Made by a program: the position numbers and the translations under genes
Notes under the pieces: generated by a model
The model's database searches: none
What the model was told of the DNA's origin: nothing
What the model saw: only the letters and a program-made list of their open reading frames with translations
In this document: positions 333 through 64,000 of the stretch, piece after piece
How positions within the stretch are numbered: the first letter of the stretch is position 1
Layout: the number at the start of each line of letters is the position of its first letter
DNA from: Auanema rhodensis
Taxonomy: Eukaryota > Animalia > Nematoda
Assembly (NCBI GenBank): GCA_964057225.1
Contig: OZ059896.1
Location: 23,513,665-23,577,664, forward strand
DNA: 64,000 bases
Direction of reading: 5' to 3'

Positions 333-3200
333 TTAAATATTGTTAAGATTAATAGAAAGATGTTTTCTGAAGCTGGAAGTGTTTCTTAGTTGAACGATGT
401 TTTCAGGGAGTGTGTTCCAGATTTGAATAGCTCTGTATTCTATTCCAGTTCTTGTTTCGCTCTTCCAAAGATCAGGGTATTCAACATTCCATAGATGTCT
501 ACGTAGTGAATGAGCATAGTGCTTGGTAGTAAAAAAGTTAAGGTTGTTTTCTGGAACATTTTTAGTAATCTGATTATGATAAAAAACGAGATCAATTAGT
601 AGTCTTCTAAACGTTAGCTCCTCGGCTCCAAGAAACAATAGCTGGTTCTTGTAATCCAAAGCTATTTCGGCTCTCTTAAAAATAGCGTTTAAAAACTTTT
701 TTTGGACAGACTCAATGCGCGCTTTATCTTTGTTATTCTGAGGAGACCATACAACTGAAGCATATTCTAAAATCGGTCGGATATAGCAGCAAAAAAGTTT
801 GAACATCAAAGTTGGTGATCTTGAGTAAAAACAACGCAAAATAACACGACATTTGTGAGCAGCAATGTTAGAAATTCTGTCTATATGACTGTTAAAAGAG
901 AGATTATAGTCTGTACACACACCTAGATCTTTATATGATGATACTGTAGCTAAAGAAATGTCTCCAAATTTGAAAATTGTGTTTGTTCTTGGTGTAGTGG
1001 TACTCGATATAATCATAATTTTGGATTTGGAAGTATTAACTTTCATACCGTTAGATAGACACCAGTTTTTGAGAATATTCAAAGCTAGTTGTAAACTTAC
1101 CGGATTTGTGCTGCTTAGTTTAAGATCGTCTGCATAAAGAGTTGGATGTACATCATCAGGTAAATTTGATGTAATATCATTTATATAAAATAAAAAAAGA
1201 AGAGGACCCAGTACTGTCCCCTGTGGAACTCCACAGGGCAAAGAATTTGTGACGGATAGAGAGTAATTAACTAATACAGAGAAAGATCTATTAGTAATGA
1301 AGTTTTTGAGAAAAGTGAGAATACAGCCGTCAATGCCAATTGATTTTAATTTAGCTAACAGAACGGAATGATTTATGAGATCAAAAGCCTTAGAAAAGTC
1401 AATAAAGGCAACATAAACAGGTTTTTTCTTGTCTACAGCAGATCTCCAGAGAACATGACTACTAAGAATTGCCGATACAGTATTGCGTTTTGGAAGAAAA
1501 GCAAACTGATTAGGAGAAATAAAGCCGGAGGAAATACCAAAGTCAAGAAGAGGTGAACGCAGGAGACGTTCAAAAACTTTAGACAGACTGGATGTGAGAG
1601 AAATAGGACGATAATTAGCCGGGTTAGAAGAAAGTCCTGATTTATGAACGGGACGAATCCAAGCTGTTTTCCAGTCAGGAGGACAAGAGGAGGAAACAAG
1701 TAGATTGTGGAAAACAAAGGCCAGAGGCTGAGAGAGAGTAGAAGCACAATTTTTTAGGAAGAAATAAGGGATTCCGTCTGGGGATGTTGATACCCGAAGA
1801 GGTAACTGACAGAGAATTTTGTGAACGTTGAGAGGGGAGACATCAATAAAGTCGATAATAGTAGAAGAAGAGGAATGAGGAGCATGTGGTAGAGAGATAG
1901 GAAGGGGGCGAACAGAGAAGGTGGTAGCAAAGATAGAGGCTTTGTCAGAATCAGACGAAACAGAATCATTATCTATTTTGAGATTTGGGATATCTGAAGT
2001 GCTGCCAACCAAACGGGTTCTGCAAAAGCGATTAAGAAGTTTTGAATTATTATAGTTGGCAATACGTTCCTCTTCCGAAGCCAATCTATTCTTGATAAGT
2101 TTATCAAGAGAATGTGAAAGTTTTTTACGACGAGATTCATCATGATGATGATAAGAACAACTGAGTTTTTTTATATGAGATGAGAGTTTTAAAATATCTC
2201 GGTCAATCTTCTTTGTTCTTCTTTCTTTTTTTTTGGGAACGCAGCTATCAATGACCGAGTGAAGAATGTGAACAAGTTTAGAGTAAGAATCTAAAGGAGT
2301 GAGACCGGAGAGATGATTAGCGAAATCAATTTTGGCTAGTCTATGATTGATGAGATTGTAGTCAGCAGCTTGAAAATTGCGATCAGAAAACATAGGTAAT
2401 GCTACCGGAGACAAAGTATTAGAAGAGCTGATTGTGTTAGCTAACTGAAAAGAGTCTGAAACAATTTGGAAAACCACAGAATGGTGATCCGAGGAGCCGA
2501 GGGGGGAAGAACGGGATATGTTGCCTACACTGGATATGTTATCAGTGATAACATAATCAAGAATGTTCTTGCCTCTGGTAGGGAACTTTACCAACTGATG
2601 AGAACAGCTATCGTTGAGAAATTGAAGAATAGATCTACTAGAGGAGCATGGTTGAGAGCAAATACCGAGGTCCCAGTTGATTTTAGGAAAATTTAGATCG
2701 CCCGTTAGGAAGAACGATCGTTTGGAAATTTGTTTACGTAGATCAGAAAGAAACGAAATGAAATCTGAATGAGAAGCTGTTGGAGGACGATAACAAAGTG
2801 AGAAAACAGCATTAAGTGAAGGTATGAGTAAGTTAATGAATTGTATAGAAGATTGAGGAGAAGAACAGGAAAGAAGAAAAGGTTTGATATGACTTTTAAT
2901 ATAGAGGACAACACCACCACCACGTGAGAGACACCTATCGGCTCTAAAAATAGTGTAAGTATCTTTACATGGGAGTAGGTGGGTATCGAACTCAGGAAAA
3001 AGCCATGATTCTGATATTGCAATTATATCAGGAGTGGATAAAGAAATAACGTGGGATAGTATATGAAGTTTGTTAAGAATAGAACGTGCATTAAAACACT
3101 GAACTGAGAGGCTGGTAGGATGTGAGACAGGGGGGGTTGAAGACGTGACAGTGTTAACGAAAGGACATTTTGTCAGACGTGAGACGTTGAGATGTATTGT
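333..3200 (-). CDS. LINE ORF2: apurinic-like (APE) endonuclease + reverse transcriptase; stop-to-stop open frame of 955 sense codons, no AUG start
   Basis: Hand translation upstream of the track's TTG start (2594) finds no stop until TGA at 3203-3201. APE motifs: CFNARSILNK, DIIAISESWL, FRADR..RGGGVVLYI, LCYRPP, LTGDLNFPKINW, PTRGKNILDYVIT, SSDH. RT motifs: SPDGI, NYRPISLTS, FIDFSKAFD, GVPQGTVLGPLLF, YADD (1136-1125), DLGV. Confidence 0.95.
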   Translation of the reverse strand, partial: TIHLNVSRLTKCPFVNTVTSSTPPVSHPTSLSVQCFNARSILNKLHILSHVISLSTPDIIAISESWLFPEFDTHLLPCKDTYTIFRADRCLSRGGGVVLYIKSHIKPFLLSCSSPQSSIQFINLLIPSLNAVFSLCYRPPTASHSDFISFLSDLRKQISKRSFFLTGDLNFPKINWDLGICSQPCSSSRSILQFLNDSCSHQLVKFPTRGKNILDYVITDNISSVGNISRSSPLGSSDHHSVVFQIVSDSFQLANTISSSNTLSPVALPMFSDRNFQAADYNLINHRLAKIDFANHLSGLTPLDSYSKLVHILHSVIDSCVPKKKERRTKKIDRDILKLSSHIKKLSCSYHHHDESRRKKLSHSLDKLIKNRLASEEERIANYNNSKLLNRFCRTRLVGSTSDIPNLKIDNDSVSSDSDKASIFATTFSVRPLPISLPHAPHSSSSTIIDFIDVSPLNVHKILCQLPLRVSTSPDGIPYFFLKNCASTLSQPLAFVFHNLLVSSSCPPDWKTAWIRPVHKSGLSSNPANYRPISLTSSLSKVFERLLRSPLLDFGISSGFISPNQFAFLPKRNTVSAILSSHVLWRSAVDKKKPVYVAFIDFSKAFDLINHSVLLAKLKSIGIDGCILTFLKNFITNRSFSVLVNYSLSVTNSLPCGVPQGTVLGPLLFLFYINDITSNLPDDVHPTLYADDLKLSSTNPVSLQLALNILKNWCLSNGMKVNTSKSKIMIISSTTTPRTNTIFKFGDISLATVSSYKDLGVCTDYNLSFNSHIDRISNIAAHKCRVILRCFYSRSPTLMFKLFCCYIRPILEYASVVWSPQNNKDKARIESVQKKFLNAIFKRAEIALDYKNQLLFLGAEELTFRRLLIDLVFYHNQITKNVPENNLNFFTTKHYAHSLRRHLWNVEYPDLWKSETRTGIEYRAIQIWNTLPENIVQLRNTSSFRKHLSINLNNI
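910..1790 (-). other. Reverse transcriptase domain of ORF2
   Basis: Runs from SPDGI through YRPISL, DFSKAFD, PQG and YADD to YKDLGV. Boundaries approximate. Confidence 0.92.
2470..3110 (-). other. APE endonuclease domain of ORF2 (mostly missed by the ORF track)
   Basis: Catalytic-motif residues are all present and in order: N (FNARS), E (ISESW), Y (CYRPP), GDxN (GDLN), D (ILDY), SDH (2492-2484). Boundaries approximate. Confidence 0.9.
3154..3165 (-). promoter_or_regulatory. Candidate +1 programmed ribosomal frameshift site UCC_UUU_CGU_UAA
   Basis: The last three ORF1 codons plus stop read TCC TTT CGT TAA (3165-3154). The ORF2 frame reads TTC GTT AAC, shifted by +1. Confidence 0.7.
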
Positions 3201-4218
3201 TCATGCTAACAGATCTGGTAATTTGATCTGTGGTTAATTTTGCGGATCGTGGTGGATTTTTGCGACGTCTTGGGCTAACAGAAGAACGCTTGTCTTTTGA
3301 CGTGCGGTTCTGTCTTTCCTTCGACCGGCTCATTCTACCAGATTTACAAGGGGGGCTAGAAAAAAGAGTTGGGGATGTGAGAGTTTGAGAATGGAGTGTT
3401 GGTAATGGAACGTTGTGAATAGATGGTATTTTAGGAGTTTGATTACAAGAAGAAGTGGGAGCTATTTTAGGGTTTGGAGGATCGGCTGGATTGCGGGAAA
3501 CTTCAATAAGTCGAAGATCTCGTACCAAAAAGACAGACTTAGTGTTGTTTTTGTTTTTTTCTTTTGCTTCCTCGCGAAGGTTGTTTTCCAGTTGAATTTC
3601 AAAAGGCAGATAGTCGCGACGTACAAAAGTTTTAGATAAAGATTCGAAACATTTAGTCTTATTTGCTTTGATAGATGTTATGATCTTATCCCGCAATTCA
3701 ACCGATGGACAAGTAATAATGAGTGGGCCTGGGGATTTAGATTTAAGGATGCAACGTGTAATGGTTATTTGGTTAGTGTTAAGGAGAGTTGACAAAGTAG
3801 TGTCGTTGGATTTCTCAATGACCAGTTTCAGTAAAGAAGAAGGGTCAGAAGGTAAATCCGGGCAAGAGACTGGTACACGGAACCAGAGGGCTCTCTTACA
3901 ACGATAATCGTACTTTGTCTCCTCTGATCTAATTTTTTGGATTTGGCATGCAACATTGGAAGAAGAAAGAAGAGGTGAGTTATGGGTGGTGTTAGGAATA
4001 GTGCAAGAGAGTTGAGTTAACTTCTGCTCCAACTTATCGAGACGCGATTTGAAATCGGTTTCGATGAGTTTTATGCGTGAGTCATGCGATGCAACTGCGG
4101 TTTTGATACTACTGAGCTCGTGTCTTATTTGTACTGAAAGTTCAGCAAAAGAGTTATGTAAAGAATCGGAAAGTGATTCGAGGGCAGTAGTAAGAAACTC
4201 GTTAGTTACGTGAGACAT
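3154..4218 (-). CDS. LINE ORF1 protein (354 aa), putative nucleic-acid chaperone
   Basis: ATG-initiated ORF directly upstream of ORF2. It has an N-terminal heptad-like coiled-coil region (LESLSDSLHNSF...LDKLEQKLTQL), a central globular segment (PLIITC...FVRRDYLPFEIQLENNLREEA) and a basic, S/P/R-rich low-complexity C-terminal tail. Function is inferred from position and architecture. Confidence 0.85.
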   Translation of the reverse strand: MSHVTNEFLTTALESLSDSLHNSFAELSVQIRHELSSIKTAVASHDSRIKLIETDFKSRLDKLEQKLTQLSCTIPNTTHNSPLLSSSNVACQIQKIRSEETKYDYRCKRALWFRVPVSCPDLPSDPSSLLKLVIEKSNDTTLSTLLNTNQITITRCILKSKSPGPLIITCPSVELRDKIITSIKANKTKCFESLSKTFVRRDYLPFEIQLENNLREEAKEKNKNNTKSVFLVRDLRLIEVSRNPADPPNPKIAPTSSCNQTPKIPSIHNVPLPTLHSQTLTSPTLFSSPPCKSGRMSRSKERQNRTSKDKRSSVSPRRRKNPPRSAKLTTDQITRSVSMNNTSQRLTSDKMSFR

Positions 4219-4393: not shown

Positions 4394-4519
4394 ATGAGGT
4401 CAAATCGCGGAATGAGGTCAAATCGCGGAATGCGGTCAAATCGCGGAATGAGGTCAAATCGCGGAATGTGGTCAAATCGCGGAATGAGGTCAAATCGCGG
4501 AATGAGGTCAAATCGCGGA
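4394..4519. repeat. Minisatellite, 7 x 18 bp (ATG[A/C/T]GGTCAAATCGCGGA)
   Basis: Units start at 4394, 4412, 4430, 4448, 4466, 4484 and 4502. Only position 4 varies (A,A,C,A,T,A,A). Confidence 0.98.
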
Positions 4520-4521
4520 AA

Positions 4522-7500
4522 TGCACTTGGTATGTAACTCGCTTCACGTGAAAGATAAAGAGATGCGGTTTTCAAAATTAGATTCCCCATGTCCATATTA
4601 GTCTAAAAACAAATTTTTATTGATATTGGTTCATGGTAACCATGACTTTGAAATTTACGTGAACTTTAATTTATGCTAATTAAATGTACACTTGATGTAC
4701 ACTTGGTATGTAACTCGCTTCACGTGAAAGATAAAGAGATGCGGTTTTCAAAATTAGATTCCCCATGTCCATATTAGTCTAAAAACAAATTTTTATTGAT
4801 ATTGGTGCATGGTAACCTTGACTTTGAAATTTACGTGAACTTTAATTTATGCTAATTAAATGTACACGTGATGTGCACTTGGTATGTAACTCGCTTCACG
4901 TGAAAGATAAAGAGATGCGGTTTTCAAAATTAGATTCCCCATGTCCATATTAGTCTAAAAACAAATTTTTATTGATATTGGTTCATGGTAACCATGACTT
5001 TGAAATTTACGTGAACTTTAATTTATGCTAATTAAATGTACACGTGATGTGCACTTGGTATGTAACTCGCTTCACGTGAAAGATAAAGAGATGCGGTTTT
5101 CAAAATTAGATTCCCCATGTCCATATTAGTCTAAAAACAAATTTTTATTGATATTGGTGCATGGTAACCATGACTTTGAAATTTACGTGAACTTTAATTT
5201 ATGCTAATTAAATGTACACGTGATGTGCACTTGGTATGTAACTCGCTTCACGTGAAAGATAAAGAGATGCGGTTTTCAAAATTAGATTCCCCATGTCCAT
5301 ATTAGTCTAAAAACACATTTTTATTGATATTGGTTCATGGTAACCATGACTTTGAAATTTACGTGAACTTTAATTTATGCTAATTAAATGTACACGTGAT
5401 GTGCACTTGGTATGTAACTCGCTTCACGTGAAAGATAAAGAGATGCGGTTTTCAAAATTAGATTCCCCATGTCCATATTAGTCTAAAAACAAATTTTTAT
5501 TGATATTGCTTCATGGTAACCATGACTTTGAAATTTACGTGAACTTTAATTTATGCTAATTAAATGTACACGTGATGTGCACTTGGTATGTAACTCGCTT
5601 CACGTGAAAGATAAAGAGATGCGGTTTTCAAAATTAGATTCCCCATGTCCATATTAGTCTAAAAACAAATTTTTATTGATATTGGTGCATGGTAACCATG
5701 ACTTTGAAATTTACGTGAACTTTAATTTATGCTAATTAAATGTACACGTGATGTGCACTTGGTATGTAACTCGCTTCACGTGAAAGATAAAGAGATGCGG
5801 TTTTCAAAATTAAATTCCCCATGTCCATATTAGTCTAAAAACAAATTTTTATTGATATTGGTGCATGGTAACCATGACTTTGAATTTTACGTGAACTTTA
5901 ATTTATGCTAATTAAATGTACACGTGATGTGCACTTGGTATGGAACTCGCTTCACGTGAAAGATAAAGAGATGCGGTTTTCAAAATTAGATTCCCCATGT
6001 CCATATTAGTCTAAAAACAAATTTTTATTGATATTGGTTCATGGTAACCATGACTTTGAAATTTACGTGAACTTTAATTTATGCTAATTAAATGTACACG
6101 TGATGTGCACTTGGTATGTAACTCGCTTCACGTGAAAGATAAAGAGATGCGGTTTTCAAAATTAGATTCCCCATGTCCATATTAGTCTAAAAACAAATTT
6201 TTATTGATATTGCTTCATGGTAACCATGACTTTGAAATTTACGTGAACTTTAATTTATGCTAATTAAATGTACACGTGATGTGCACTTGGTATGTAACTC
6301 GCTTCACGTGAAAGATAAAGAGATGCGGTTTTCAAAATTAGATTCCCCATGTCCATTTTAGTCTAAAAACAAATTTTTATTGATATTGGTTCATGGTAAC
6401 CATGACTTTGAAATTTACGTGAACTTTAATTTATGCTAATTAAATGTACACGTGATGTGCACTTGGTATGTAACTCGCTTCACGTGAAAGATAAAGAGAT
6501 GCGGTTTTCAAAATTAGATTCCCCATGTCCATATTAGTCTAAAAACAAATTTTTATTGATATTGCTTCATGGTAACCATGACTTTGAAATTTACGTGAAC
6601 TTTAATTTATGCTAATTAAATGTACACGTGATGTGCACTTGGTATGTAACTCGCTTCACGTGAAAGATAAAGAGATGCGGTTTTCAAAATTAGATTCCCC
6701 ATGTCCATATTAGTCTAAAAACAAATTTTTATTGATATTGGTTCATGGTAACCATGACTTTGAAATTTACGTGAACTTTAATTTATGCTAATTAAATGTA
6801 CACTTGATGTACACTTGGTATGTAACTCGCTTCACGTGAAAGATAAAGAGATGCGGTTTTCAAAATTAGATTCCCCATGTCCATATTAGTCTAAAAACAA
6901 ATTTTTATTGATATTGCTTCATGGTAACCATGACTTTGAAATTTACGTGAACTTTAATTTATGCTAATTAAATGTACACGTGATGTGCACTTGGTATGTA
7001 ACTCGCTTCACGTGAAAGATAAAGAGATGCGGTTTTCAAAATTAGATTCCCCATGTCCATATTAGTCTAAAAACAAATTTTTATTGATATTGGTGCATGG
7101 TAACCATGACTTTGAAATTTACGTGAACTTTAATTTATGCTAATTAAATGTACACGTGATGTGCACTTGGTAAGTAACTCGCTTCACGTGAAAGATAAAG
7201 AGATGCGGTTTTCAAAATTAGATTCCCCATGTCCATATTAGTCTAAAAACAAATTTTTATTGATATTGGTGCATGGTAACCATGACTTTGAAATTTACGT
7301 GAACTTTAATTTATGCTAATTAAATGTACACGTGATGTGCACTTGGTATGTAACTCGCTTCACGTGAAAGATAAAGAGATGCAGTTTTCAAAATTAGATT
7401 CCCCATGTCCATATTAGTCTAAAAACAAATTTTTATTGATATTGGTGCATGGTAACCATGACTTTGAAATTTACGTGAACTTTAATTTATGCTAATTAAA

Positions 7501-10500
7501 TGTACACTTGATGTACACTTGGTATGTAACTCGCTTCACGTGAAAGATAAAGAGATGCGGTTTTCAAAATTAGATTCCCCATGTCCATATTAGTCTAAAA
7601 ACAAATTTTTATTGATATTGCTTCATGGTAACCATGACTTTGAAATTTACGTGAACTTTAATTTATGCTAATTAAATGTACACGTGATGTGCACTTGGTA
7701 TGTAACTTGCTTCACGTGAAAGATAAAGAGATGCGGTTTTCAAAATTAGATTCCCCATGTCCATATTAGTCTAAAAACAAATTTTTATTGATATTGGTTC
7801 ATGGTAACCATGACTTTGAAATTTACGTGAACTTTAATTTATGCTAATTAAATGTACACGTGATGTGCACTTGGTATGTAACTCGCTTCACGTGAAAGAT
7901 AAAGAGATGCGGTTTTCAAAATTAGATTCCCCATGTCCATATTAGTCTAAAAACAAATTTTTATTGATATTGGTGCATGGTAACCATGACTTTGAAATTT
8001 ACGTGAACTTTAATTTATGCTAATTAAATGTACACGTGATGTGCACTTGGTATGTAACTCGCTTCACGTGAAAGATAAAGAGATGCGGTTTTCAAAATTA
8101 GATTCCCCATGTCCATATGAGTCTAAAAACAAATTTTTATTGATATTGGTGCATGGTAACCATGACTTTGAAATTTACGTGAACTTTAATTTATGCTAAT
8201 TAAATGTACACGTGATGTGCACTTGGTAAGTAACTCGCTTCACGTGAAAGATAAAGAGATGCGGTTTTCAAAATTAGATTCCCCATGTCCATATTAGTCT
8301 AAAAACAAATTTTTATTGATATTGCTTCATGGTAACCATGACTTTGAAATTTACGTGAACTTTAATTTATGCTAATTAAATGTACACGTGATGTGCACTT
8401 GGTATGTAACTCGCTTCACGTGAAAGATAAAGAGATGCGGTTTTCAAAATTAGATTCCCCATGTCCATATTAGTCTAAAAACAAATTTTTATTGATATTG
8501 GTGCATGGTAACCATGACTTTGAAATTTACGTGAACTTTAATTTATGCTAATTAAATGTACACTTGATGTACACTTGGTATGTAACTCGCTTCACGTGAA
8601 AGATAAAGAGATGCGGTTTTCAAAATTAGATTCCCCATGTCCATATTAGTCTAAAAACAAATTTTTATTGATATTGGTGCATGGTAACCTTGACTTTGAA
8701 ATTTACGTGAACTTTAATTTATGCTAATTAAATGTACACGTGATGTGCACTTGGTATGTAACTCGCTTCACGTGAAAGATAAAGAGATGCGGTTTTCAAA
8801 ATTAGATTCCCCATGTCCATATTAGTCTAAAAACAAATTTTTATTGATATTGGTTCATGGTAACCATGACTTTGAAATTTACGTGAACTTTAATTTATGC
8901 TAATTAAATGTACACGTGATGTGCACTTGGTATGTAACTCGCTTCACGTGAAAGATAAAGAGATGCGGTTTTCAAAATTAGATTCCCCATGTCCATATTA
9001 GTCTAAAAACAAATTTTTATTGATATTGCTTCATGGTAACCATGACTTTGAAATTTACGTGAACTTTAATTTATGCTAATTAAATGTACACGTGATGTGC
9101 ACTTGGTATGTAACTCGCTTCACGTGAAAGATAAAGAGATGCGGTTTTCAAAATTAGATTCCCCATGTCCATATTAGTCTAAAAACAAATTTTTATTGAT
9201 ATTGGTTCATGGTAACCATGACTTTGAAATTTACGTGAACTTTAATTTATGCTAATTAAATGTACACGTGATGTGCACTTGGTATGTAACTCGCTTCACG
9301 TGAAAGATAAAGAGATGCGGTTTTCAAAATTAGATTCCCCATGTCCATATTAGTCTAAAAACAAATTTTTATTGATATTGGTTCATGGTAACCATGACTT
9401 TGAAATTTACGTGAACTTTAATTTATGCTAATTAAATGTACACGTGATGTGCACTTGGTATGTAACTCGCTTCACGTGAAAGATAAAGAGATGCGGTTTT
9501 CAAAATTAGATTCCCCATGTCCATATTAGTCTAAAAACAAATTTTTATTGATATTGGTTCATGGTAACCATGACTTTGAAATTTACGTGAACTTTAATTT
9601 ATGCTAATTAAATGTACACGTGATGTGCACTCGGTATGTAACTTGCTTCACGTGAAAGATAAAGAGATGCGGTTTTCAAAATTAGATTCCCCATGTCCAT
9701 ATTAGTCTAAAAACAAATTTTTATTGATATTGGTTCATGGTAACCATGACTTTGAAATTTACGTGAACTTTAATTTATGCTAATTAAATGTACACGTGAT
9801 GTGCACTTGGTATGTAACTCGCTTCACGTGAAAGATAAAGAGATGCGGTTTTCAAAATTAGATTCCCCATGTCCATATTAGTCTAAAAACAAATTTTTAT
9901 TGATATTGGTGCATGGTAACCATGACTTTGAAATTTACGTGAACTTTAATTTATGCTAATTAAATGTACACTTGATGTACACTTGGTATGTAACTCGCTT
10001 CACGTGAAAGATAAAGAGATGCGGTTTTCAAAATTAGATTCCCCATGTCCATATTAGTCTAAAAACAAATTTTTATTGATATTGCTTCATGGTAACCATG
10101 ACTTTGAAATTTACGTGAACTTTAATTTATGCTAATTAAATGTACACGTGATGTGCACTTGGTATGTAACTCGCTTCACGTGAAAGATAAAGAGATGCGG
10201 TTTTCAAAATTAGATTCCCCATGTCCATATTAGTCTAAAAACAAATTTTTATTGATATTGGTGCATGGTAACCATGACTTTGAAATTTACGTGAACTTTA
10301 ATTTATGCTAATTAAATGTACACTTGATGTACACTTGGTATGTAACTCGCTTCACGTGAAAGATAAAGAGATGCGGTTTTCAAAATTAGATTCCCCATGT
10401 CCATATTAGTCTAAAAACAAATTTTTATTGATATTGGTGCATGGTAACCTTGACTTTGAAATTTACGTGAACTTTAATTTATGCTAATTAAATGTACACG

Positions 10501-13500
10501 TGATGTGCACTTGGTATGTAACTCGCTTCACGTGAAAGATAAAGAGATGCGGTTTTCTAAATTAGATTCCCCATGTCCATATTAGTCTAAAAACAAATTT
10601 TTATTGATATTGGTGCATGGTAACCATGACTTGGAAATTAACGTGAACTTTAATTTATGCTAATTAAATGTACACGTGATGTACACTTGGTATGTAACTT
10701 GCTTCACGTGAAAGATAAAGAGATGCGGTTCTCAAAATTAGATTCCCCATGTCCATATTAGTCTAAAAACAAATTTTTATTGATATTGGTGCATGGTAAC
10801 CATGACTTTGAAATTTACGTGAACTTTAATTTATGCTAATTAAATGTACACGTGATGTGCACTTGGTAAGTAACTCGCTTCACGTGAAAGATAAAGAGAT
10901 GCGGTTTTCCAAATTAGATTCCCCATGTCCATATTAGTCTAAAAACAAATTTTTATTGATATTGGTGCATGGTAACCATGACTTGGAAATTAACGTGAAC
11001 ATTAATTTATGCTAATTAAATGTACACGTGATGTACACTTGGTATGTAACTTGCTTCACGTGAAAGATAAAGAGATGCGGTTTTCAAAATTAGATTCCCC
11101 ATGTCCATATTAGTCTAAAAACAAATTTTTATTGATATTGGTGCATGGTAACCATGACTTTGAAATTTACGTGAACTTTAATTTATGCTAATTAAATGTA
11201 CACGTGATGTGCACTTGGTAAGTAACTCGCTTCACGTGAAAGATAAAGAGATGCGGTTTTCAAAATTAGATTCCCCATTTCCATATTAGTCTAAAAACAA
11301 ATTTTTATTGATATTGGTTCATGGTAACCATGACTTTGAAATTTACGTGAACTTTAATTTATGCTAATTAAATGTACACGTGATGTGCACTTGGTATGTA
11401 ACTCGCTTCACGTGAAAGATAAAGAGATGCGGTTTTCAAAATTAGATTCCCCATGTCCATATTAGTCTAAAAACAAATTTTTATTGATATTGCTTCATGG
11501 TAACCATGACTTTGAAATTTACGTGAACTTTAATTTATGCTAATTAAATGTACACGTGATGTGCACTTGGTATGTAACTCGCTTCACGTGAAAGATAAAG
11601 AGATGCGGTTTTCAAAATTAGATATCCCATGTCCATATTAGTCTAAAAACAAATTTTTATTGATATTGGTTCATGGTAACCATGACTTTGAAATTTACGT
11701 GAACTTTAATTTATGCTAATTAAATGTACACGTGATGTGCACTTGGTATGTAACTCGCTTCACGTGAAAGATAAAGAGATGCGGTTTTCAAAATTAGATT
11801 CCCCATGTCCATATTAGTCTAAAAACAAATTTTTATTGATATTGGTTCATGGTAACCATGACTTTGAAATTTACGTGAACTTTAATTTATGCTAATTAAA
11901 TGTACACGTGATGTGCACTTGGTATGTAACTCGCTTCACGTGAAAGATAAAGAGATGCGGTTTTCAAAATTAGATTCCCCATGTCCATATTAGTCTAAAA
12001 ACAAATTTTTATTGATATTGGTGCATGGTAACCATGACTTTGAAATTTACGTGAACTTTAATTTATGCTAATTAAATGTACACGTGATGTGCACTTGGTA
12101 TGTAACTCGCTTCACGTGAAAGATAAAGAGATGCGGTTTTCAAAATTAGATTCCCCATGTCCATATTAGTCTAAAAACAAATTTTTATTGATATTGCTTC
12201 ATGGTAACCATGACTTTGAAATTTACGTGAACTTTAATTTATGCTAATTAAATGTACACGTGATGTGCACTCGGTATGTAACTCGCTTCACGTGAAAGAT
12301 AAAGAGATGCGGTTTTCAAAATTAGATTCCCCATGTCCATATTAGTCTAAAAACAAATTTTTATTGATATTGGTTCATGGTAACCATGACTTTGAAATTT
12401 ACGTGAACTTTAATTTATGCTAATTAAATGTACACGTGATGTGCACTTGGTATGTAACTCGTTTCACGTGAAAGATAAAGAGATGCGGTTTTCAAAATTA
12501 GATTCCCCATGTCCATATTAGTCTAAAAACAAATTTTTATTGATATTGGTTCATGGTAACCATGACTTTGAAATTTACGTGAACTTTAATTTATGCTAAT
12601 TAAATGTACACGTGATGTGCACTTGGTATGTAACTCGTTTCACGTGAAAGATAAAGAGATGCGGTTTTCAAAATTAGATTCCCCATGTCCATATTAGTCT
12701 AAAAACAAATTTTTATTGATATTGGTGCATGGTAACCTTGACTTTGAAATTAACGTGAACTTTAATTTATGCTAATTAAATGTACACGTGATGTACACTT
12801 GGTATGTAACTTGCTTCACGTGAAAGATAAAGAGATGCGGTTTTCAAAATTAGATTCCCCATGTCCATATTAGTCTAAAAACAAATTTTTATTGATATTG
12901 GTTCATGGTAACCATGACTTTGAAATTTACGTGAACTTTAATTTATGCTAATTAAATGTACACGTGATGTGCACTTGGTAAGTAACTCGCTTCACGTGAA
13001 AGATAAAGAGATGCGGTTTTCAAAATTAGATTCCCCATGTCCATATTAGTCTAAAAACAAATTTTTATTGATATTGGCGCATGGTAACCATGACTTTGAA
13101 TTTTACGTGAACTTTAATTTATGCTAATTAAATGTACACGTGATGTGCACTTGGTATGTAACTCGCTTCACGTGAAAGATAAAGAGATGCGGTTTTCAAA
13201 ATTAGATTCCCCATGTCCATATTAGTCTAAAAACAAATTTTTATTGATATTGGTGCATGGTAACCATGACTTTGAATTTTACGTGAACTTTAATTTATGC
13301 TAATTAAATGTACACGTGATGTGCACTTGGTATGTAACTCGCTTCGCGTGAAAGATAAAGAGATGCGGTTTTCAAAATTAGATTCCCCATGTCCATATTA
13401 GTCTAAAAACAAATTTTTATTGATATTGCTTCATGGTAACCATGACTTTGAAATTTACGTGAACTTTAATTTATGCTAATTAAATGTACACGTGATGTGC

Positions 13501-16500
13501 ACTTGGTATGTAACTCGCTTCACGTGAAAGATAAAGAGATGCGGTTTTCAAAATTAGATTCCCCATGTCCATATTAGTCTAAAAACAATTTTTTATTGAT
13601 ATTGGTGCATGGTAACCATGACTTTGAAATTTACGTGAACTTTAATTTATGCTAATTAAATGTACACGTGATGTGCACTTGGTATGTAACTCGTTTCACG
13701 TGAAAGATAAAGAGATGCGGTTTTCAAAATTAGATTCCCCATGTCCATATTAGTCTAAAAACAAATTTTTATTGATATTGGTGCATGGTAACCTTGACTT
13801 TGAAATTAACGTGAACTTTAATTTATGCTAATTAAATGTACACGTGATGTACACTTGGTATGTAACTTGCTTCACGTGAAAGATAAAGAGATGCGGTTTT
13901 CAAAATTAGATTCCCCATGTCCATATTAGTCTAAAAACAAATTTTTATTGATATTGGTTCATGGTAACCATGACTTTGAAATTTACGTGAACTTTAATTT
14001 ATGCTAATTAAATGTACACGTGATGTGCACTTGGTAAGTAACTCGCTTCACGTGAAAGATAAAGAGATGCGGTTTTCAAAATTAGATTCCCCATGTCCAT
14101 ATTAGTCTAAAAACAAATTTTTATTGATATTGGCGCATGGTAACCATGACTTTGAATTTTACGTGAACTTTAATTTATGCTAATTAAATGTACACGTGAT
14201 GTGCACTTGGTATGTAACTCGCTTCACGTGAAAGATAAAGAGATGCGGTTTTCAAAATTAGATTCCCCATGTCCATATTAGTCTAAAAACAAATTTTTAT
14301 TGATATTGGTGCATGGTAACCATGACTTTGAATTTTACGTGAACTTTAATTTATGCTAATTAAATGTACACGTGATGTGCACTTGGTATGTAACTCGCTT
14401 CGCGTGAAAGATAAAGAGATGCGGTTTTCAAAATTAGATTCCCCATGTCCATATTAGTCTAAAAACAAATTTTTATTGATATTGCTTCATGGTAACCATG
14501 ACTTTGAAATTTACGTGAACTTTAATTTATGCTAATTAAATGTACACGTGATGTGCACTTGGTATGTAACTCGCTTCACGTGAAAGATAAAGAGATGCGG
14601 TTTTCAAAATTAGATTCCCCATGTCCATATTAGTCTAAAAACAATTTTTTATTGATATTGGTGCATGGTAACCATGACTTTGAAATTTACGTGAACTTTA
14701 ATTTATGCTAATTAAATGTACACGTGATGTGCACTTGGTATGTAACTCGCTTCACGTGAAAGATAAAGAGATGCGGTTTTCAAAATTAGATTCCCCATGT
14801 CCATATTAGTCTAAAAACAAATTTTTATTGATATTGGTGCATGGTAACCATGACTTTGAAATTTACGTGAACTTTAATTTATGCTAATTAAATGTACACT
14901 TGATGTACACTTGGTATGTAACTCGCTTCACGTGAAAGATAAAGAGATGCGGTTTTCAAAATTAGATTCCCCATGTCCATATTAGTCTAAAAACAAATTT
15001 TTATTGATATTGGCGCATGGTAACCATGACTTTGAATTTTACGTGAACTTTAATTTATGCTAATTAAATGTACACGTGATGTGCACTTGGTATGTAACTC
15101 GCTTCACGTGAAAGATAAAGAGATGCGGTTTTCAAAATTAGATTCCCCATGTCCATATTAGTCTAAAAACAATTTTTTATTGATATTGGTGCATGGTAAC
15201 CATGACTTTGAATTTTACGTGAACTTTAATTTATGCTAATTAAATGTACACGTGATGTGCACTTGGTATGTAACTCGCTTCACGTGAAAGATAAAGAGAT
15301 GCGGTTTTCAAAATTAGATTCCCCATGTCCATATTAGTCTAAAAACAAATTTTTATTGATATTGGTGCATGGTAACCATGACTTTGAATTTTACGTGAAC
15401 TTTAATTTATGCTAATTAAATGTACACGTGATGTGCACTTGGTATGTAACTCGCTTCGCGTGAAAGATAAAGAGATGCGGTTTTCAAAATTAGATTCCCC
15501 ATGTCCATATTAGTCTAAAAACAAATTTTTATTGATATTGCTTCATGGTAACCATGACTTTGAAATTTACGTGAACTTTAATTTATGCTAATTAAATGTA
15601 CACGTGATGTGCACTTGGTATGTAACTCGCTTCACGTGAAAGATAAAGAGATGCGGTTTTCAAAATTAGATTCCCCATGTCCATATTAGTCTAAAAACAA
15701 TTTTTTATTGATATTGGTGCATGGTAACCATGACTTTGAAATTTACGTGAACTTTAATTTATGCTAATTAAATGTACACGTGATGTGCACTTGGTATGTA
15801 ACTCGCTTCACGTGAAAGATAAAGAGATGCGGTTTTCAAAATTAGATTCCCCATGTCCATATTAGTCTAAAAACAAATTTTTATTGATATTGGTGCATGG
15901 TAACCATGACTTTGAAATTTACGTGAACTTTAATTTATGCTAATTAAATGTACACTTGATGTACACTTGGTATGTAACTCGCTTCACGTGAAAGATAAAG
16001 AGATGCGGTTTTCAAAATTAGATTCCCCATGTCCATATTAGTCTAAAAACAAATTTTTATTGATATTGGTGCATGGTAACCTTGACTTTGAAATTTACGT
16101 GAACTTTAATTTATGCTAATTAAATGTACACGTGATGTGCACTTGGTATGTAACTCGCTTCACGTGAAAGATAAAGAGATGCGGTTTTCAAAATTAGATT
16201 CCCCATGTCCATATTAGTCTAAAAACAAATTTTTATTGATATTGGTTCATGGTAACCATGACTTTGAAATATACGTGAACTTTAATTTATGCTAATTAAA
16301 TGTACACGTGATGTGCACTTGGTATGGAACTCGCTTCACGTGAAAGATAAAGAGATGCGGTTTTCACAATTAGATTCCCCATGTCCATATTAGTCTAAAA
16401 ACAAATTTGTATTGATATTGGTTCATGGTAACCATGACTTTGAAATTTACGTGAACTTTAATTTATGCTAATTAAATGTACACGTGATGTGCACTTGGTA

Positions 16501-19500
16501 TGTAACTCGCTTCACGTGAAAGATAAAGAGATGCGGTTTTCAAAATTAGATTCCCCATGTCCATATTAGTCTAAAAACAAATTTTTATTGATATTGCTTC
16601 ATGGTAACCATGACTTTGAAATTTACGTGAACTTTAATTTATGCTAATTAAATGTACACGTGATGTGCACTTGGTATGTAACTCGCTTCACGTGAAAGAT
16701 AAAGAGATGCGGTTTTCAAAATTAGATTCCCCATGTCCATATTAGTCTAAAAACAAATTTTTATTGATATTGGTGCATGGTAACCATGACTTTGAAATTT
16801 ACGTGAACTTTAATTTATGCTAATTAAATGTACACTTGTTGTACACTTGGTATGTAACTCGCTTCACGTGAAAGATAAAGAGATGCGGTTTTCAAAATTA
16901 GATTCCCCATGTCCATATTAGTCTAAAAACAAATTTTTATTGATATTGGTGCATGGTAACCTTGACTTTAAATTTACGTGAACTTTAATTTATGCTAATT
17001 AAATGTACACGTGATGTGCACTTGGTATGTAACTCGCTTCACGTGAAAGATAAAGAGATGCGGTTTTTAAAATTAGATTCCCCATGTCCATATTAGTCTA
17101 AAAACAAATTTTTATTGATATTGGTGCATGGTAACCATGACTTTGAAATTTACGTGAACTTTAATTTATGCTAATTAAATGTACACTTGATGTACACTTG
17201 GTATGTAACTCGCTTCACGTGAAAGATAAAGAGATGCGGTTTTCAAAATTAGATTCCCCATGTCCATATTAGTCTAAAAACAAATTTTTATTGATATTGG
17301 TGCATGGTAACCTTGACTTTGAAATTTACGTGAACTTTAATTTATGCTAATTAAATGTACACGTGATGTGCACTTGGTATGTAACTCGCTTCACGTGAAA
17401 GATAAAGAGATGCGGTTTTCAAAATTAGATTCCCCATGTCCATATTAGTCTAAAAACAAATTTTTATTGATATTGGTGCATGGTAACCATGACTTTGAAT
17501 TTTACGTGAACTTTAATTTATGCTAATTAAATGTACACGTGATGTGCACTTGGTATGGAACTCGCTTCACGTGAAAGATAAAGAGATGCGGTTTTCAAAA
17601 TTAGATTCCCCATGTCCATATTAGTCTAAAAACAAATTTTTATTGATATTGGTTCATGGTAACCATGACTTTGAAATTTACGTGAACTTTAATTTATGCT
17701 AATTAAATGTACACGTGATGTGCACTTGGTATGTAACTCGCTTCACGTGAAAGATAAAGAGATGCGGTTTTCAAAATTAGATTCCCCATGTCCATATTAG
17801 TCTAAAAACAAATTTTTATTGATATTGCTTCATGGTAACCATGACTTTGAAATTTACGTGAACTTTAATTTATGCTAATTAAATGTACACGTGATGTGAA
17901 CTTGGTATGTAACTCGCTTCACGTGAAAGATAAAGAGATGCGGTTTTCAAAATTAGATTCCCCATGTCCATATTAGTCTAAAAACAAATTTTTATTGATA
18001 TTGGTGCATGGTAACCATGACTTTGAAATTTACGTGAACTTTAATTTATGCTAATTAAATGTACACGTGATGTGCACTTGGTATGTAACTCGCTTCACGT
18101 GAAAGATAAAGAGATGCGGTTTTCAAAATTAGATTCCCCATGTCCATATTAGTCTAAAAACAAATTTTTATTGATATTGGTGCATGGTAACCTTGACTTT
18201 GAAATTTACGTGAACTTTAATTTATGCTAATTAAATGTACACGTGATGTACACTTGGTATGTAACTTGCTTCACGTGAAAGATAAAGAAATGCGGTTTTC
18301 AAAATTAGATTCCCCATGTCCATATTAGTCTGAAAACAAATTTTTATTGATATTGGTGCATGGTAACCATGACTTTGAAATTAACGTGAACTTTAATTTA
18401 TGCTAATTAAATGTACACGTGATGTACACTTGGTATGTAACTTGCTTCACGTGAAAGATAAAGAGATGCGGTTTTCAAAATTAGATTCCCCATGTCCATA
18501 TTAGTCTAAAAACAAATTTTTATTGATATTGCTTCATGGTAACCATGACTTTGAAATTTACGTGAACTTTAATTTATGCTAATTAAATGTACACGTGATG
18601 TGAACTTGGTATGTAACTCGCTTCACGTGAAAGATAAAGAGATGCGGTTTTCAAAATTAGATTCCCCATGTCCATATTAGTCTAAAAACAAATTTTTATT
18701 GATATTGGTGCATGGTAACCATGACTTTGAAATTTACGTGAACTTTAATTTATGCTAATTAAATGTACACGTGATGTGCACTTGGTATGTAACTCGCTTC
18801 ACGTGAAAGATAAAGAGATGCGGTTTTCAAAATTAGATTCCCCATGTCCATATTAGTCTAAAAACAAATTTTTATTGATATTGGTGCATGGTAACCTTGA
18901 CTTTGAAATTTACGTGAACTTTAATTTATGCTAATTAAATGTACACGTGATGTACACTTGGTATGTAACTTGCTTCACGTGAAAGATAAAGAAATGCGGT
19001 TTTCAAAATTAGATTCCCCATGTCCATATTAGTCTAAAAACAAATTTTTATTGATATTGGTGCATGGTAACCATGACTTTGAAATTAACGTGAACTTTAA
19101 TTTATGCTAATTAAATGTACACGTGATGTACACTTGGTATGTAACTTGCTTCACGTGAAAGATAAAGAGATGCGGTTTTCAAAATTAGATTCCCCATGTC
19201 CATATTAGTCTAAAAACAAATTTTTATTGATATTGGTGCATGGTAACCATGACTTTGAATTTTACGTGAACTTTAATTTATGCTAATTAAATGTACACGT
19301 GATGTGCACTTGGTATGTAACTCGCTTCACGTGAAAGATAAAGAGATGCGGTTTTCAAAATTAGATTACCCATGTCCATATTAGTCTAAAAACAAATTTT
19401 TATTGTTATTGGTGCATGGTAACCATGACTTTGAATTTTACGTGAACTTTAATTTATGCTAATTAAATGTACACGTGATGTGCACTTGGTATGTAACTCG

Positions 19501-22500
19501 CTTCACGTGAAAGATAAAGAGATGCGGTTTTCAAAATTAGATTACCCATGTCCATATTAGTCTAAAAACAAATTTTTATTGATATTGGTGCATGGTAACC
19601 ATGACTTTGAATTTTACGTGAACTTTAATTTATGCTAATTAAATGTACACGTGATGTGCACTTGGTATGTAACTCGCTTCACGTGAAAGATAAAGAGATG
19701 CGGTTTTCAAAATTAGATTACCCATGTCCATATTAGTCTAAAAACAAATTTTTATTGTTATTGGTGCATGGTAACCATGACTTTGAATTTTACGTGAACT
19801 TTAATTTATGCTAATTAAATGTACACGTGATGTGCACTTGGTATGTAACTCGCTTCACGTGAAAGATAAAGAGATGCGGTTTTCAAAATTAGATTCCCCA
19901 TGTCCATATTAGTCTAAAAACAAATTTTTATTGATATTGCTTCATGGTAACCATGACTTTGAAATTTACGTGAACTTTAATTTATGCTAATTAAATGTAC
20001 ACGTGATGTGCACTTGGTATGTAACTCGCTTCACGTGAAAGATAAAGAGATGCGGTTTTCAAAATTAGATTCCCCATGTCCATATTAGTCTAAAAACAAA
20101 TTTTTATTGATATTGGTGCATGGTAACCATGACTTTGAAATTTACGTGAACTTTAATTTATGCTAATTAAATGTACATTTGATGTACACTTGGTATGTAA
20201 CTCGCTTCACGTGAAAGATAAAGAGATGCGGTTTTCCAAATTAGATTCCCCATGTCCATATTAGTCTAAAAACAAATTTTTATTGATATTGGTGCATGGT
20301 AACCATGACTTGGAAATTAACGTGAACTTTAATTTATGCTAATTAAATGTACACGTGATGTACACTTGGTATGTAACTTGCTTCACGTGAAAGATAAAGA
20401 AATGCGGTTTTCAAAATTAGATTCCCCATGTCCATATTAGTCTAAAAACAAATTTTTATTGATATTGGTGCATGGTAACCATGACTTTGAAATTAACGTG
20501 AACTTTAATTTATGCTAATTAAATGTACACGTGATGTACACTTGGTATGTAACTTGCTTCACGTGAAAGATAAAAAGATGCGGTTTTCAAAATTAGATTC
20601 CCCATGTCCATATTAGTTTAAAAACAAATTTTTATTGATATTGGTGCATGGTAACCATGACTTTGAATTTTACGTGAACTTTAATTTATGCTAATTAAAT
20701 GTACACGTGATGTGCACTTGGTATGTAACTCGCTTCACGTGAAAGATAAAGAGATGCGGTTTTCAAAATTAGATTACCCATGTCCATATTAGTCTAAAAA
20801 CAAATTTTTATTGTTATTGGTGCATGGTAACCATGACTTTGAATTTTACGTGAACTTTAATTTATGCTAATTAAATGTACACGTGATGTGCACTTGGTAT
20901 GTAACTCGCTTCACGTGAAAGATAAAGAGATGCGGTTTTCAAAATTAGATTACCCATGTCCATATTAGTCTAAAAACAAATTTTTATTGATATTGGTGCA
21001 TGGTAACCATGACTTTGAATTTTACGTGAACTTTAATTTATGCTAATTAAATGTACACGTGATGTGCACTTGGTATGTAACTCGCTTCACGTGAAAGATA
21101 AAGAGATGCGGTTTTCAAAATTAGATTACCCATGTCCATATTAGTCTAAAAACAAATTTTTATTGTTATTGGTGCATGGTAACCATGACTTTGAATTTTA
21201 CGTGAACTTTAATTTATGCTAATTAAATGTACACGTGATGTGCACTTGGTATGTAACTCGCTTCACGTGAAAGATAAAGAGATGCGGTTTTCAAAATTAG
21301 ATTCCCCATGTCCATATTAGTCTAAAAACAAATTTTTATTGATATTGCTTCATGGTAACCATGACTTTGAAATTTACGTGAACTTTAATTTATGCTAATT
21401 AAATGTACACGTGATGTGCACTTGGTATGTAACTCGCTTCACGTGAAAGATAAAGAGATGCGGTTTTCAAAATTAGATTCCCCATGTCCATATTAGTCTA
21501 AAAACAAATTTTTATTGATATTGGTGCATGGTAACCATGACTTTGAAATTTACGTGAACTTTAATTTATGCTAATTAAATGTACACTTGATGTACACTTG
21601 GTATGTAACTCGCTTCACGTGAAAGATAAAGAGATGCGGTTTTCAAAATTAGATTCCCCATGTCCATATTAGTCTAAAAACAAATTTTTATTGATATTGG
21701 TGCATGGTAACCTTGACTTTGAAATTTACGTGAACTTTAATTTATGCTAATTAAATGTACACGTGATGTGCACTTGGTATGTAACTCGCTTCACGTGAAA
21801 GATAAAGAGATGCGGTTTTCCAAATTAGATTCCCCATGTCCATATTAGTCTAAAAACAAATTTTTATTGATATTGGTGCATGGTAACCATGACTTGGAAA
21901 TTAACGTGAACTTTAATTTATGCTAATTAAATGTACACGTGATGTACACTTGGTATGTAACTTGCTTCACGTGAAAGATAAAGAGATGCGGTTTTCAAAA
22001 TTAGATTCCCCATGTCCATATTAGTCTAAAAACAAATTTTTATTGATATTGGTGCATGGTAACCATGACTTTGAAATTTACGTGAACTTTAATTTATGCT
22101 AATTAAATGTACACGTGATGTGCACTTGGTAAGTAACTCGCTTCACGTGAAAGATAAAGAGATGCGGTTTTCAAAATTAGATTCCCCATTTCCATATTAG
22201 TCTAAAAACAAATTTTTATTGATATTGGTTCATGGTAACCATGACTTTGAAATTTACGTGAACTTTAATTTATGCTAATTAAATGTACACGTGATGTGCA
22301 CTTGGTATGTAACTCGCTTCACGTGAAAGATAAAGAGATGCGGTTTTCAAAATTAGATTCCCCATGTCCATATTAGTCTAAAAACAAATTTTTATTGATA
22401 TTGCTTCATGGTAACCATGACTTTGAAATTTACGTGAACTTTAATTTATGCTAATTAAATGTACACGTGATGTGCACTTGGTATGTAACTCGCTTCACGT

Positions 22501-61500: not shown

Positions 61501-64000
61501 TGAACTTTAATTTATGCTAATTAAATGTACACGTGATGTGCACTTGGTATGTAACTCGCTTCACGTGAAAGATAAAGAGATGCGGTTTTCAAAATTAGAT
61601 TCCCCATGTCCATATTAGTCTAAAAACAAATTTTTATTGATATTGGTGCATGGTAACCATGACTTTGAAATTTACGTGAACTTTAATTTATGCTAATTAA
61701 ATGTACACGTGATGTGCACTTGGTATGTAACTCGCTTCACGTGAAAGATAAAGAGATGCGGTTTTCAAAATTAGATTCCCCATGTCCATATTAGTCTAAA
61801 AACAAATTTTTATTGATATTGGTGCATGGTAACCATGACTTTGAAATTTACGTGAACTTTAATTTATGCTAATTAAATGTACACGTGATGTGCACTTGGT
61901 ATGTAACTCGCTTCACGTGAAAGATAAAGAGATGCGGTTTTCAAAATTAGATTCCCCATGTCCATATTAGTCTAAAAACAAATTTTTATTGATATTGGTT
62001 CATGGTAACCATGACTTTGAAATTTACGTGAACTTTAATTTATGCTAATTAAATGTACACGTGATGTGCACTTGGTATGTAACTCGCTTCACGTGAAAGA
62101 TAAAGAGATGCGGTTTTCAAAATTAGATTCCCCATGTCCATATTAGTCTAAAAACAAATTTTTATTGATATTGGTTCATGGTAACCATGACTTTGAAATT
62201 TACGTGAACTTTAATTTATGCTAATTAAATGTACACGTGATGTGCACTTGGTATGTAACTCGCTTCACGTGAAAGATAAAGAGATGCGGTTTTCAAAATT
62301 AGATTCCCCATGTCCATATTAGTCTAAAAACAAATTTTTATTGATATTGGTGCATGGTAACCATGACTTTGAAATTTACGTGAACTTTAATTTATGCTAA
62401 TTAAATGTACACGTGATGTGCACTTGGTATGTAACTCGCTTCACGTGAAAGATAAAGAGATGAGGTTTTCAAAATTAGATTCCCCATGTCCATATTAGTC
62501 TAAAAACAAATTTTTATTGATATTGGTTCATGGTAACCATGACTTTGAAATTTACGTGAACTTTAATTTATGCTAATTAAATGTACACGTGATGTGCACT
62601 TGGTATGTAACTCGCTTCACGTGAAAGATAAAGAGATGCGGTTTTCAAAATTAGATTCCCCATGTCCATATTAGTCTAAAAACAAATTTTTATTGATATT
62701 GCTTCATGGTAACCATGACTTTGAAATTTACGTGAACTTTAATTTATGCTAATTAAATGTACACGTGATGTGCACTTGGTATGTAACTCGCTTCACGTGA
62801 AAGATAAAGAGATACGGTTTTCAAAATTAGATTCCCCATGTCCATATTAGTCTAAAAACAAATTTTTATTGATATTGGTTCATGGTAACCATGACTTTGA
62901 AATTTACGTGAACTTTAATTTATGCTAATTAAATGTACACGTGATGTGCACTTGGTATGTAACTCGCTTCACGTGAAAGATAAAGAGATGCGGTTTTCAA
63001 AATTAGATTCCCCATGTCCATATTAGTCTAAAAACAAATTTTTATTGATATTGGTGCATGGTAACCATGACTTTGAAATTTACGTGAACTTTAATTTATG
63101 CTAATTAAATGTACACGTGATGTGCACTTGGTATGTAACTCGCTTCACGTGAAAGATAAAGAGATACGGTTTTCAAAATTAGATTCCCCATGTCCATATC
63201 AGTCTAAAAACAAATTTTTATTGATATTGGTTCATGGTAACCATGACTTTGAAATTTACGTGAACTTTAATTTATGCTAATTAAATGTACACGTGATGTG
63301 CACTTGGTATGTAACTCGCTTCACGTGAAAGATAAAGAGATGCGGTTTTCAAAATTAGATTCCCCATGTCCATATTAGTCTAAAAACAAATTTTTATTGA
63401 TATTGGTTCATGGTAACCATGACTTTGAAATTTACGTGAACTTTAATTTATGCTAATTAAATGTACACGTGATGTGCACTTGGTATGTAACTCGCTTCAC
63501 GTGAAAGATAAAGAGATGCGGTTTTCAAAATTAGATTCCCCATGTCCATATTAGTCTAAAAACAAATTTTTATTGATATTGGTGCATGGTAACCATGACT
63601 TTGAAATTTACGTGAACTTTAATTTATGCTAATTAAATGTACACGTGATGTGCACTTGGTATGTAACTCGCTTCACGTGAAAGATAAAGAGATACGGTTT
63701 TCAAAATTAGATTCCCCATGTCCATATTAGTCTAAAAACAAATTTTTATTGATATTGGTTCATGGTAACCATGACTTTGAAATTTACGTGAACTTTAATT
63801 TATGCTAATTAAATGTACACGTGATGTGCACTTGGTATGTAACTCGCTTCACGTGAAAGATAAAGAGATGCGGTTTTCAAAATTAGATTCCCCATGTCCA
63901 TATTAGTCTAAAAACAAATTTTTATTGATATTGCTTCATGGTAACCATGACTTTGAAATTTACGTGAACTTTAATTTATGCTAATTAAATGTACACGTGA
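4522..64000. repeat. 176-bp AT-rich tandem satellite array, ~338 monomers, continues past the right edge
   Basis: Consensus TGCACTTGGTATGTAACTCGCTTCACGTGAAAGATAAAGAGATGCGGTTTTCAAAATTAGATTCCCCATGTCCATATTAGTCTAAAAACAAATTTTTATTGATATTGGT(G/T)CATGGTAACCATGACTTTGAAATTTACGTGAACTTTAATTTATGCTAATTAAATGTACACGTGATG. The 176 period is confirmed by ORF-track offsets (51835 to 52011). Monomers differ by only a few bases and all share one orientation. Confidence 0.99.

Follow-up and report, generated by a model that had tools for sequence, protein, structure and literature searches.

A candidate PA-X-type +1 frameshift site at the ORF1-ORF2 junction of a nematode LINE

The left end of a 64,000-nt stretch of Auanema rhodensis DNA (contig OZ059896.1, positions 23,513,665 to 23,577,664; the whole stretch is called the window below) carries, on the minus strand, a long interspersed nuclear element (LINE) with an apurinic endonuclease-like (APE) domain, a reverse transcriptase (RT), and two open reading frames (ORFs). 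Frames and motifs were located by script. ORF1 (4218..3154, minus strand) begins with an ATG at 4218, ends with a TAA at 3156-3154, whose next base is C, and encodes 354 aa. The ORF2 frame (3200..333, minus strand) is +1 to ORF1, opens after a TGA at 3203-3201 and contains 955 open codons. The two frames overlap by 47 nt (3154..3200, minus strand), and the 3' end of ORF1 reads ATG TCC TTT CGT TAA. The motif TCCTTTCGT, which lies in the ORF1 frame at 3165-3157 on the minus strand and occurs only once in the 64-kb window, has the same nine letters as the +1 shift site of influenza A PA-X and is the candidate shift site considered here. The first ATG of the ORF2 frame is found at 2393, at residue 270, downstream of the Pfam endonuclease matches, while the overlap contains two ORF2-frame near-cognates, ATA at 3197-3195 and CTG at 3176-3174. 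A +1 slip at the candidate site would join 353 residues of ORF1 to the 941 residues that follow the site in the ORF2 frame, giving a product of 1294 aa. The overlap, the relation of the frames, the end of ORF1, the position of the first ATG past the endonuclease domain and the length of the slip product had all been described in an initial annotation of this DNA, and our scripts returned the same figures.

Past the candidate site, the ORF2 frame encodes an S/T/P-rich linker (3114..3158, minus strand), which had also been pointed out earlier and was recovered here from the sequence and from comparison with a sister copy. The linker is followed by an APE endonuclease domain (2475..3110, minus strand; motifs FNARS, SESW, YRPP, GDLN and SDH all present; Pfam matches at residues 43-239 and 133-242) and by a reverse transcriptase domain (999..1643, minus strand; RVT_1 at residues 520-734, YADD motif), an arrangement that identifies the element as a LINE. 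The best PDB match of the RT is L1 ORF2p (E 1.1e-18). A combined Pfam and motif check revealed neither an RNase H nor a C-terminal zinc knuckle in ORF2, and Pfam found no protease in the element. Elements of the CR1 clade have an ORF2 without RNase H and without a C-terminal zinc knuckle, and by these general features only the element is CR1-like; a tree of 114 RTs, none of them a named reference, placed the window RT on a long branch and in no well-supported set. An AlphaFold model of the ORF1 product (22-sequence alignment) consists of a coiled coil, an RRM-like core and a C-terminal domain, with the last 100 residues (255-354), which end in S-F-R, disordered (pLDDT <50). The top Foldseek/PDB matches of the model are L1 ORF1p (E 8.2e-6), and a family profile matches the central domain weakly (E 0.006). 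ORF1 is thus predicted to encode an RNA-binding protein of the L1 ORF1p fold. A Baculo_PEP_C match on ORF1 was under the cut-off and was taken as coiled-coil noise.

The initial annotation had raised the concern of a one-base assembly error at the junction. The element is present in ten sequencing runs of three studies, nine of which contain half or more of its words. Six of the ten runs were compared at the junction, using contigs rather than raw reads; one of these runs may be the source of the window itself. Contigs of runs X1, X2, X3 and X4 (with 0, 0, 1 and 0 other letters, respectively) and of X6 crossed the junction without gaps. Because contigs of five runs from three studies lack any insertion or deletion at the junction, an assembly error is ruled out at the contig level. 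We conclude that the junction is real.

Several features of the junction match those of known shift sites. UUU_CGN is present in the zero frame, UCC occupies the E site (its counterparts in three relatives are Ser, Thr and Ser, at the amino-acid level), and a long open +1 frame without other normal access follows. UCC in the E site is stimulatory but not essential. The site does not belong to the slippery -1 heptamer class, since ORF2 is +1, and the junction does not resemble the stop-start coupling of SART1, since no ORF2 AUG overlaps the ORF1 stop or adjoins it. A slip of -2 can be dismissed, since inspection shows that it allows no re-pairing. No stem-loop was predicted after or across the site (z 0.45, -0.29 and -0.02; -1.4 upstream); we regard this as neutral, because sites of the PA-X type appear to need no 3' structure. 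The chance of finding TCC TTT CGT in one of the 15 in-frame codons of the overlap is, post hoc and by base composition, ca. 1e-4. The corresponding post hoc chance of TTT CGN is ca. 0.018 by base composition and ca. 0.012 by its frequency in ORF1 codons of other LINEs (6/7752). Since figures based on the window only are post hoc, relatives of the element serve as independent tests.

Because no AUG can give a whole ORF2p, and because the exact nine-letter PA-X site is correctly phased, a slip on it leading into ORF2, we consider it likely that a low-level +1 slip at UCC_UUU_CGU (on UUU_C) makes a 1294-aa ORF1-ORF2 fusion. By analogy with PA-X and PLEKHM2, ribosomes translating ORF1 would reach the site, two codons before the ORF1 stop, and a small share of them (ca. 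1%) would slip into the +1 frame, the P-site tRNA-Phe exchanging UUU for UUC with CGU still awaiting decoding in the A site. The slipped ribosomes would read ...KMSF-VNTVT... into the flexible linker, the APE domain and the RT, and the predicted transframe tryptic peptide is MSFVNTVTSSTPPVSHPTSLSVQCFNAR. The remaining ribosomes would terminate and release ORF1p. Such a slip could set a ratio like that of Gag to Gag-Pol and, by way of the coiled coil, might hold the enzyme on ORF1p trimers.

A full HMMER search with ORF1 yielded 28 matches, of which the top three stood apart (E 8.5e-24 to 5.7e-20; next match 6.8e-9). All three are proteins of Auanema sp. JU1783 (CAI4220742.1, CAI4220829.1 and CAI4221027.1); the names looked up for four of the weaker matches were Ancylostoma or Pristionchus. 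Taken by themselves, these names make a nematode likely as the host of the element. By BLAST, the three relatives are 31-33% identical to the window ORF1 and 36-44% identical to each other. Their C-termini are SFRK, TFRK and SFR, and that of the window protein is SFR, so that the retention of the motif in relatives, expected if the site matters, was observed in all three at the amino-acid level. The stretch preceding S/T-F-R varies in length by up to 11 residues, is dissimilar in sequence and belongs to a tail with pLDDT <50. An end in FR or FRx was found in 0/25 weaker HMMER matches, several of which are fragments or gene models running into ORF2, and in 0/69 other fetched proteins; its chance is ca. 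0.002-0.005 per protein. From a conserved NCN UUU CGN signal one would expect just such an S/T-F-R end in the relatives, and at the amino-acid level this agreement is strong.

The same C-termini bear on a shift one codon later, with CGU in the P site and UAA in the A site, which would act in the manner of antizyme genes and produce ...MSFR-NTVT.... The stop directly follows CGU or Arg in the window, in the sister subfamily and in relative P0044, and among termination contexts in C. elegans, C after the stop is the rarest (PMC1874602). In relatives P0042 and P0043, however, a Lys stands between Arg and the stop, which points to a slip on UUU_C and not on the stop. A shift at the stop would also leave the conserved Phe unexplained and, by established pairing rules, CGU cannot re-pair on GUU; we regard such a shift as very unlikely. 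The UAA directly after CGU, which the initial annotation had proposed as a possible source of pausing, is therefore present in the window, the sister and P0044, but is not a fixed part of the signal, given the Lys before the stop in two of three relatives.

Word-index protein searches returned no ORF1 relative, and the ORF2 relatives they returned were at most 36% identical. An ORF1 profile run against 44 LINE-contaminated genomes gave one weak match, on the contig of locus L043. A metagenome scan found one distant locus, L001, which is AUG-less, probably -1, and lacks the motif. Viral scans gave nothing relevant, a plasmid tblastn search gave mostly group II introns, and the ESM Atlas offered nothing but unnamed clusters below 0.9.

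To compare junctions among more distant elements, we used the best 80 of 542 LINE-like contigs from a GTDB scan, which we read as eukaryotic contaminants of bacterial assemblies. Of 85 loci in all, 41 had an APE start; 17 of these were dropped (8 lacked an ORF1 candidate, 4 had a gap between the ORFs and 5 were near-copies) and 24 were kept, each represented by a single contig, so that some may be broken copies. ORF2 was AUG-less at 17/24 junctions, being in the -1 frame in seven cases, in frame behind a single stop in six and in the +1 frame in four. An in-frame X_XXY_YYZ heptamer was present at 4/7 of the AUG-less -1 junctions versus 0.7 expected (Poisson p 0.006). Based on these sequences, AUG-less, recoding-like junctions look common in these elements, while the PA-X motif seems confined to the clade of the window element.

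Individual loci of this set offered further observations. Candidate -1 sites, T TTT TTA or T TTA AAC in the ORF1 frame, were seen in L037, L057, L064 and L066, whose AUG-less ORF2 is -1, and L061 and L072 resemble -1 families altered by one base. In L005, L017, L026, L028, L030 and L080, ORF1 and an AUG-less ORF2 share one frame behind a single stop; candidate readthrough signals are TGA CAA in L017 and L080 and a shared stop-GAY-x-TGT-TTT in L026, L028 and L030. Among weak ORF1 relatives with a +1 ORF2, L020 ends in CCC TTT CAG TAA, where a UUU_C slip is possible, yet has an upstream ATG, and L043 is AUG-less, with CCC TCA before the end. Several hundred GTDB contigs, as well as plasmid record NZ_CP104070.1, carry a LINE-like RT, probably through contamination with eukaryotic host DNA (loci L002-L081).

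The sister subfamily (B) was seen in runs X1, X2 and X6 and partly in X10 (depth 2). Over the stretch compared with the window copy (A), 3050-3280, B has 25 other letters in 231 and is 89% identical at the junction; 19 of the 25 differing positions were listed, and the other six are inferred to lie near the ends of the stretch. B keeps the +1 frame and the motif and gains no ATG in 3050-3280, so that the sister-copy check proposed in the initial annotation did not refute the frameshift. No listed change falls within 3152-3179. Downstream of the motif, in the linker, B carries a net in-frame insertion of +3 nt near 3117-3123, and non-synonymous A/B changes are frequent in the linker past the ORF1 stop. 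The near-cognate CTG at 3176 is retained in B, ATA at 3197 is changed to CTG, and ACG at 3146, a near-cognate 7 nt past the stop, becomes TCG. Two ORF1-frame ATGs near the junction, at 3204-3201 (overlapping the ORF2-frame TGA) and at 3168-3166 (directly before the motif), are kept in the sister. A restart at the latter followed by a slip would yield ORF2p without ORF1; the relatives have no Met there. A third, more distant subfamily joins across 3034-3334 in two contigs of X1, with loose ends in X2 and X4.

The A/B comparison also bears on the idea that the family is dead or non-autonomous, an inserted T having broken a single ORF1-ORF2 frame, with the motif accidental. A one-base difference at the T run would indeed fuse the frames. 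The arrangement is, however, common to both subfamilies across ca. 11% divergence, 955 codons of ORF2 are open, 17/31 of the A/B changes in ORF1 (from a partial list) fall on third positions, and the relatives also stop right after F-R. A dead lineage is thus largely refuted, and we give it hardly any weight.

ORF2 could in principle be spliced to an upstream ATG or to a portion of ORF1; one acceptor-like sequence is GTTCAG at 3104-3099, where GTTCAG/T is in phase 0 with ORF2. GTTCAG departs from the nematode splice acceptor consensus TTTCAG, and its use would cut the first strand of the APE domain. Splicing of the LINE RNA would be expected to give rise to spliced copies, yet 0/8 joints in four DNA runs had intron-like ends, though contigs attest to presence and not to absence. 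We consider splicing highly improbable.

Several points weigh against a frameshift. The case for it at this junction is drawn from sequence and from analogy. No RNA dataset appeared among the listed carriers of the element, a negative that carries no information on expression. The Auanema evidence is confined to amino acids, the choice between TTT and TTC or CGN and AGR and the frame of ORF2 being outside it; the three relatives are kin, and therefore are not three independent events; and a C-terminal protein motif would look like the same S/T-F-R end. TTT CGN occurs at 0/6 of the +1 junctions of distant LINEs (4 AUG-less, 2 with an AUG), so that the site is not general. The 28 nt left unchanged in the sister do not reach significance on their own, an unchanged run of this kind having a probability of 0.08 over the motif and 0.47 anywhere. 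Upstream of the motif, at 3198-3180, all five A/B changes are non-synonymous in ORF1; in ORF2, three of them are synonymous and two turn ATA into CTG, and 4/5 occupy ORF2 third positions. For all five to miss ORF1 third positions has a probability of 0.13 if changes are neutral, or 0.02 if the partial ORF1 rate of 17/31 applies. Just ahead of the ORF2-frame stop, 4/5 A/B changes are synonymous in ORF1. The pattern at 3198-3180 would fit an ORF2 read from about 3197 (AUA/CUG). We take this as a real but weak objection, because it involves five changes in a disordered tail and one pair of subfamilies only. Finally, reinitiation is the route taken by the two-ORF LINEs that have been characterised, L1 and SART1, and initiation in L1 is said not to depend on the AUG it has (PMC5972666, PMC2881922, PMC5009743).

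The main alternative is separate synthesis of ORF2p by termination-reinitiation or leaky initiation at a near-cognate of the overlap (AUA/CUG at 3197, CUG at 3176), the S/T-F-R end then being a protein motif or contributing to a coupling signal. The sister keeps both near-cognates, substitutions from 3200 favour the ORF2 frame, and L001 and other loci are AUG-less without a recognisable shift site. Non-AUG starts are tolerated in caliciviruses, and reinitiation is the model for L1 and SART1 (PMC5972666, PMC2881922). Reinitiation would, however, leave unexplained both the exact in-frame PA-X site and the F-R end of three distant ORF1 tails. No UGGGA, the core of the termination upstream ribosome-binding site, which would be expected 40-90 nt ahead of a stop, was found in the 110 nt ahead of this one, and the sister no longer has ACG 3146, the nearest near-cognate downstream. 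Past the stop, the linker tolerates non-synonymous changes, so a constraint on the ORF2 frame further upstream is unexpected. On balance we judge reinitiation unlikely and prefer the +1 slip at UUU_C.

A broader proposal is that PA-X-type sites are conserved across ca. 70% protein divergence in a whole nematode LINE clade, and that they are one of several interchangeable signals (+1 slip, -1 slip and stop readthrough) that make a Gag-Pol-like fusion in CR1-like LINEs. We advance this tentatively, as a possibility that falls somewhat short of an even chance; separately initiated ORF2p would then be the case of L1 and SART1 and not the rule.

At the 5' end of the element, an 18-bp unit repeated 7.1 times (4394..4520, unstranded) adjoins a 176-bp satellite array of 338 copies with 98% matches (4522..64000, unstranded), which flanks the element on its 5' side. 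The 18-bp repeat between the LINE and the satellite may represent a 5' promoter of the monomer type, or a repeat in its own right. The flank 3' of the LINE inside the window is non-satellite, and neither a 3' poly(A) or simple-repeat tail nor a target-site duplication was seen in the 332 nt after ORF2, where the window ends.

The way in which ORF2p is produced is established for very few LINEs, and these reinitiate. If the slip occurs, the junction would be the first PA-X-type site in a transposon, as far as the literature searched shows. The enzyme would be fused to an RNA-packaging protein that forms trimers, and no protease that could release it was found. Such a fusion would give a simple physical explanation of the ORF1:ORF2 ratio and of how the enzyme comes to act on its own RNA. 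Changes in host translation, such as tRNA-Arg supply or polyamines, could tune transposition. For annotators, such junctions get read as broken copies. The initial annotation knew of no description of the motif in LINEs, and our search likewise found no report of UUU_CGN in any retrotransposon in the literature covered, which mostly excluded subscription papers. Among the matches listed, none of the papers containing the nine letters was about retrotransposons by title. Frameshifting may be mentioned in older accounts of CR1 elements from insects, turtles and C. elegans, and in repeat-database reports.

Among known systems, L1 and SART1 resemble the window LINE in having two ORFs, APE and RT domains, an ORF1p of the L1 fold and low-level ORF2, but they use termination-reinitiation (PMC5972666, PMC2881922, PMC5009743), with an ORF2 AUG of their own and a separate ORF2p, while the window LINE has no such AUG. 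The initial annotation had set frameshifting apart from the strategies of well-studied LINEs. This stands with respect to L1 and SART1, but frameshifts have already been proposed in other LINEs: a -1 frameshift is stated for Dictyostelium TRE5-A/TRE3-A (PMC5911963), and a +1 frameshift or reinitiation is suggested for Paramecium LINE groups 1-2 (PMC5405496). These are likewise APE-type non-LTR elements with an out-of-frame ORF2; they belong to other lineages, and either the direction of the shift is different or no shift motif is named in the portions of the sources available. Yeast Ty1/Ty3 retrotransposons also fuse a structural protein to an enzyme through a +1 gag-pol frameshift (PMC7175516, PMC5911963), but are LTR elements with other motifs, whose fusion is cut by a protease. 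Nematodes themselves decode a +1 site, UUU-UGA, in their antizyme genes (PMC1874602).

The PA-X motif class is decoded on nuclear mRNA in human PLEKHM2, where UCC_UUU_CGG shifts at ca. 1.1-1.3% (PMC11451614), and a site of the same class is predicted in ASXL1 (PMC5644247); these, however, are cellular genes and not mobile elements. In influenza A, the PA-X site UCC_UUU_CGU was mapped by mass spectrometry, with a frameshift of 0.74-1.3% (PMC3498833); no 3' structure is evident there, and PA-X-type sites appear to need none (PMC11451614). The LINE junction has the same nine letters, the same zero-frame phasing, a putative +1 product and no predicted 3' structure. PA-X differs in that a short C-terminal tail is swapped onto an endonuclease, whereas the LINE, a DNA-encoded transposon, would add a 941-aa polymerase where its first gene ends. 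The closest layout is found in amalgaviruses, for which an ORF1+2 fusion by UUU_CGN has been proposed from conservation (PMC5052127). Although these are RNA viruses with an RNA-dependent RNA polymerase and overlaps of ca. 290-970 nt, and the LINE overlap is 47 nt with the site at the end of ORF1, they share with the window LINE a coiled-coil ORF1 of similar size and a polymerase ORF2 in the +1 frame.

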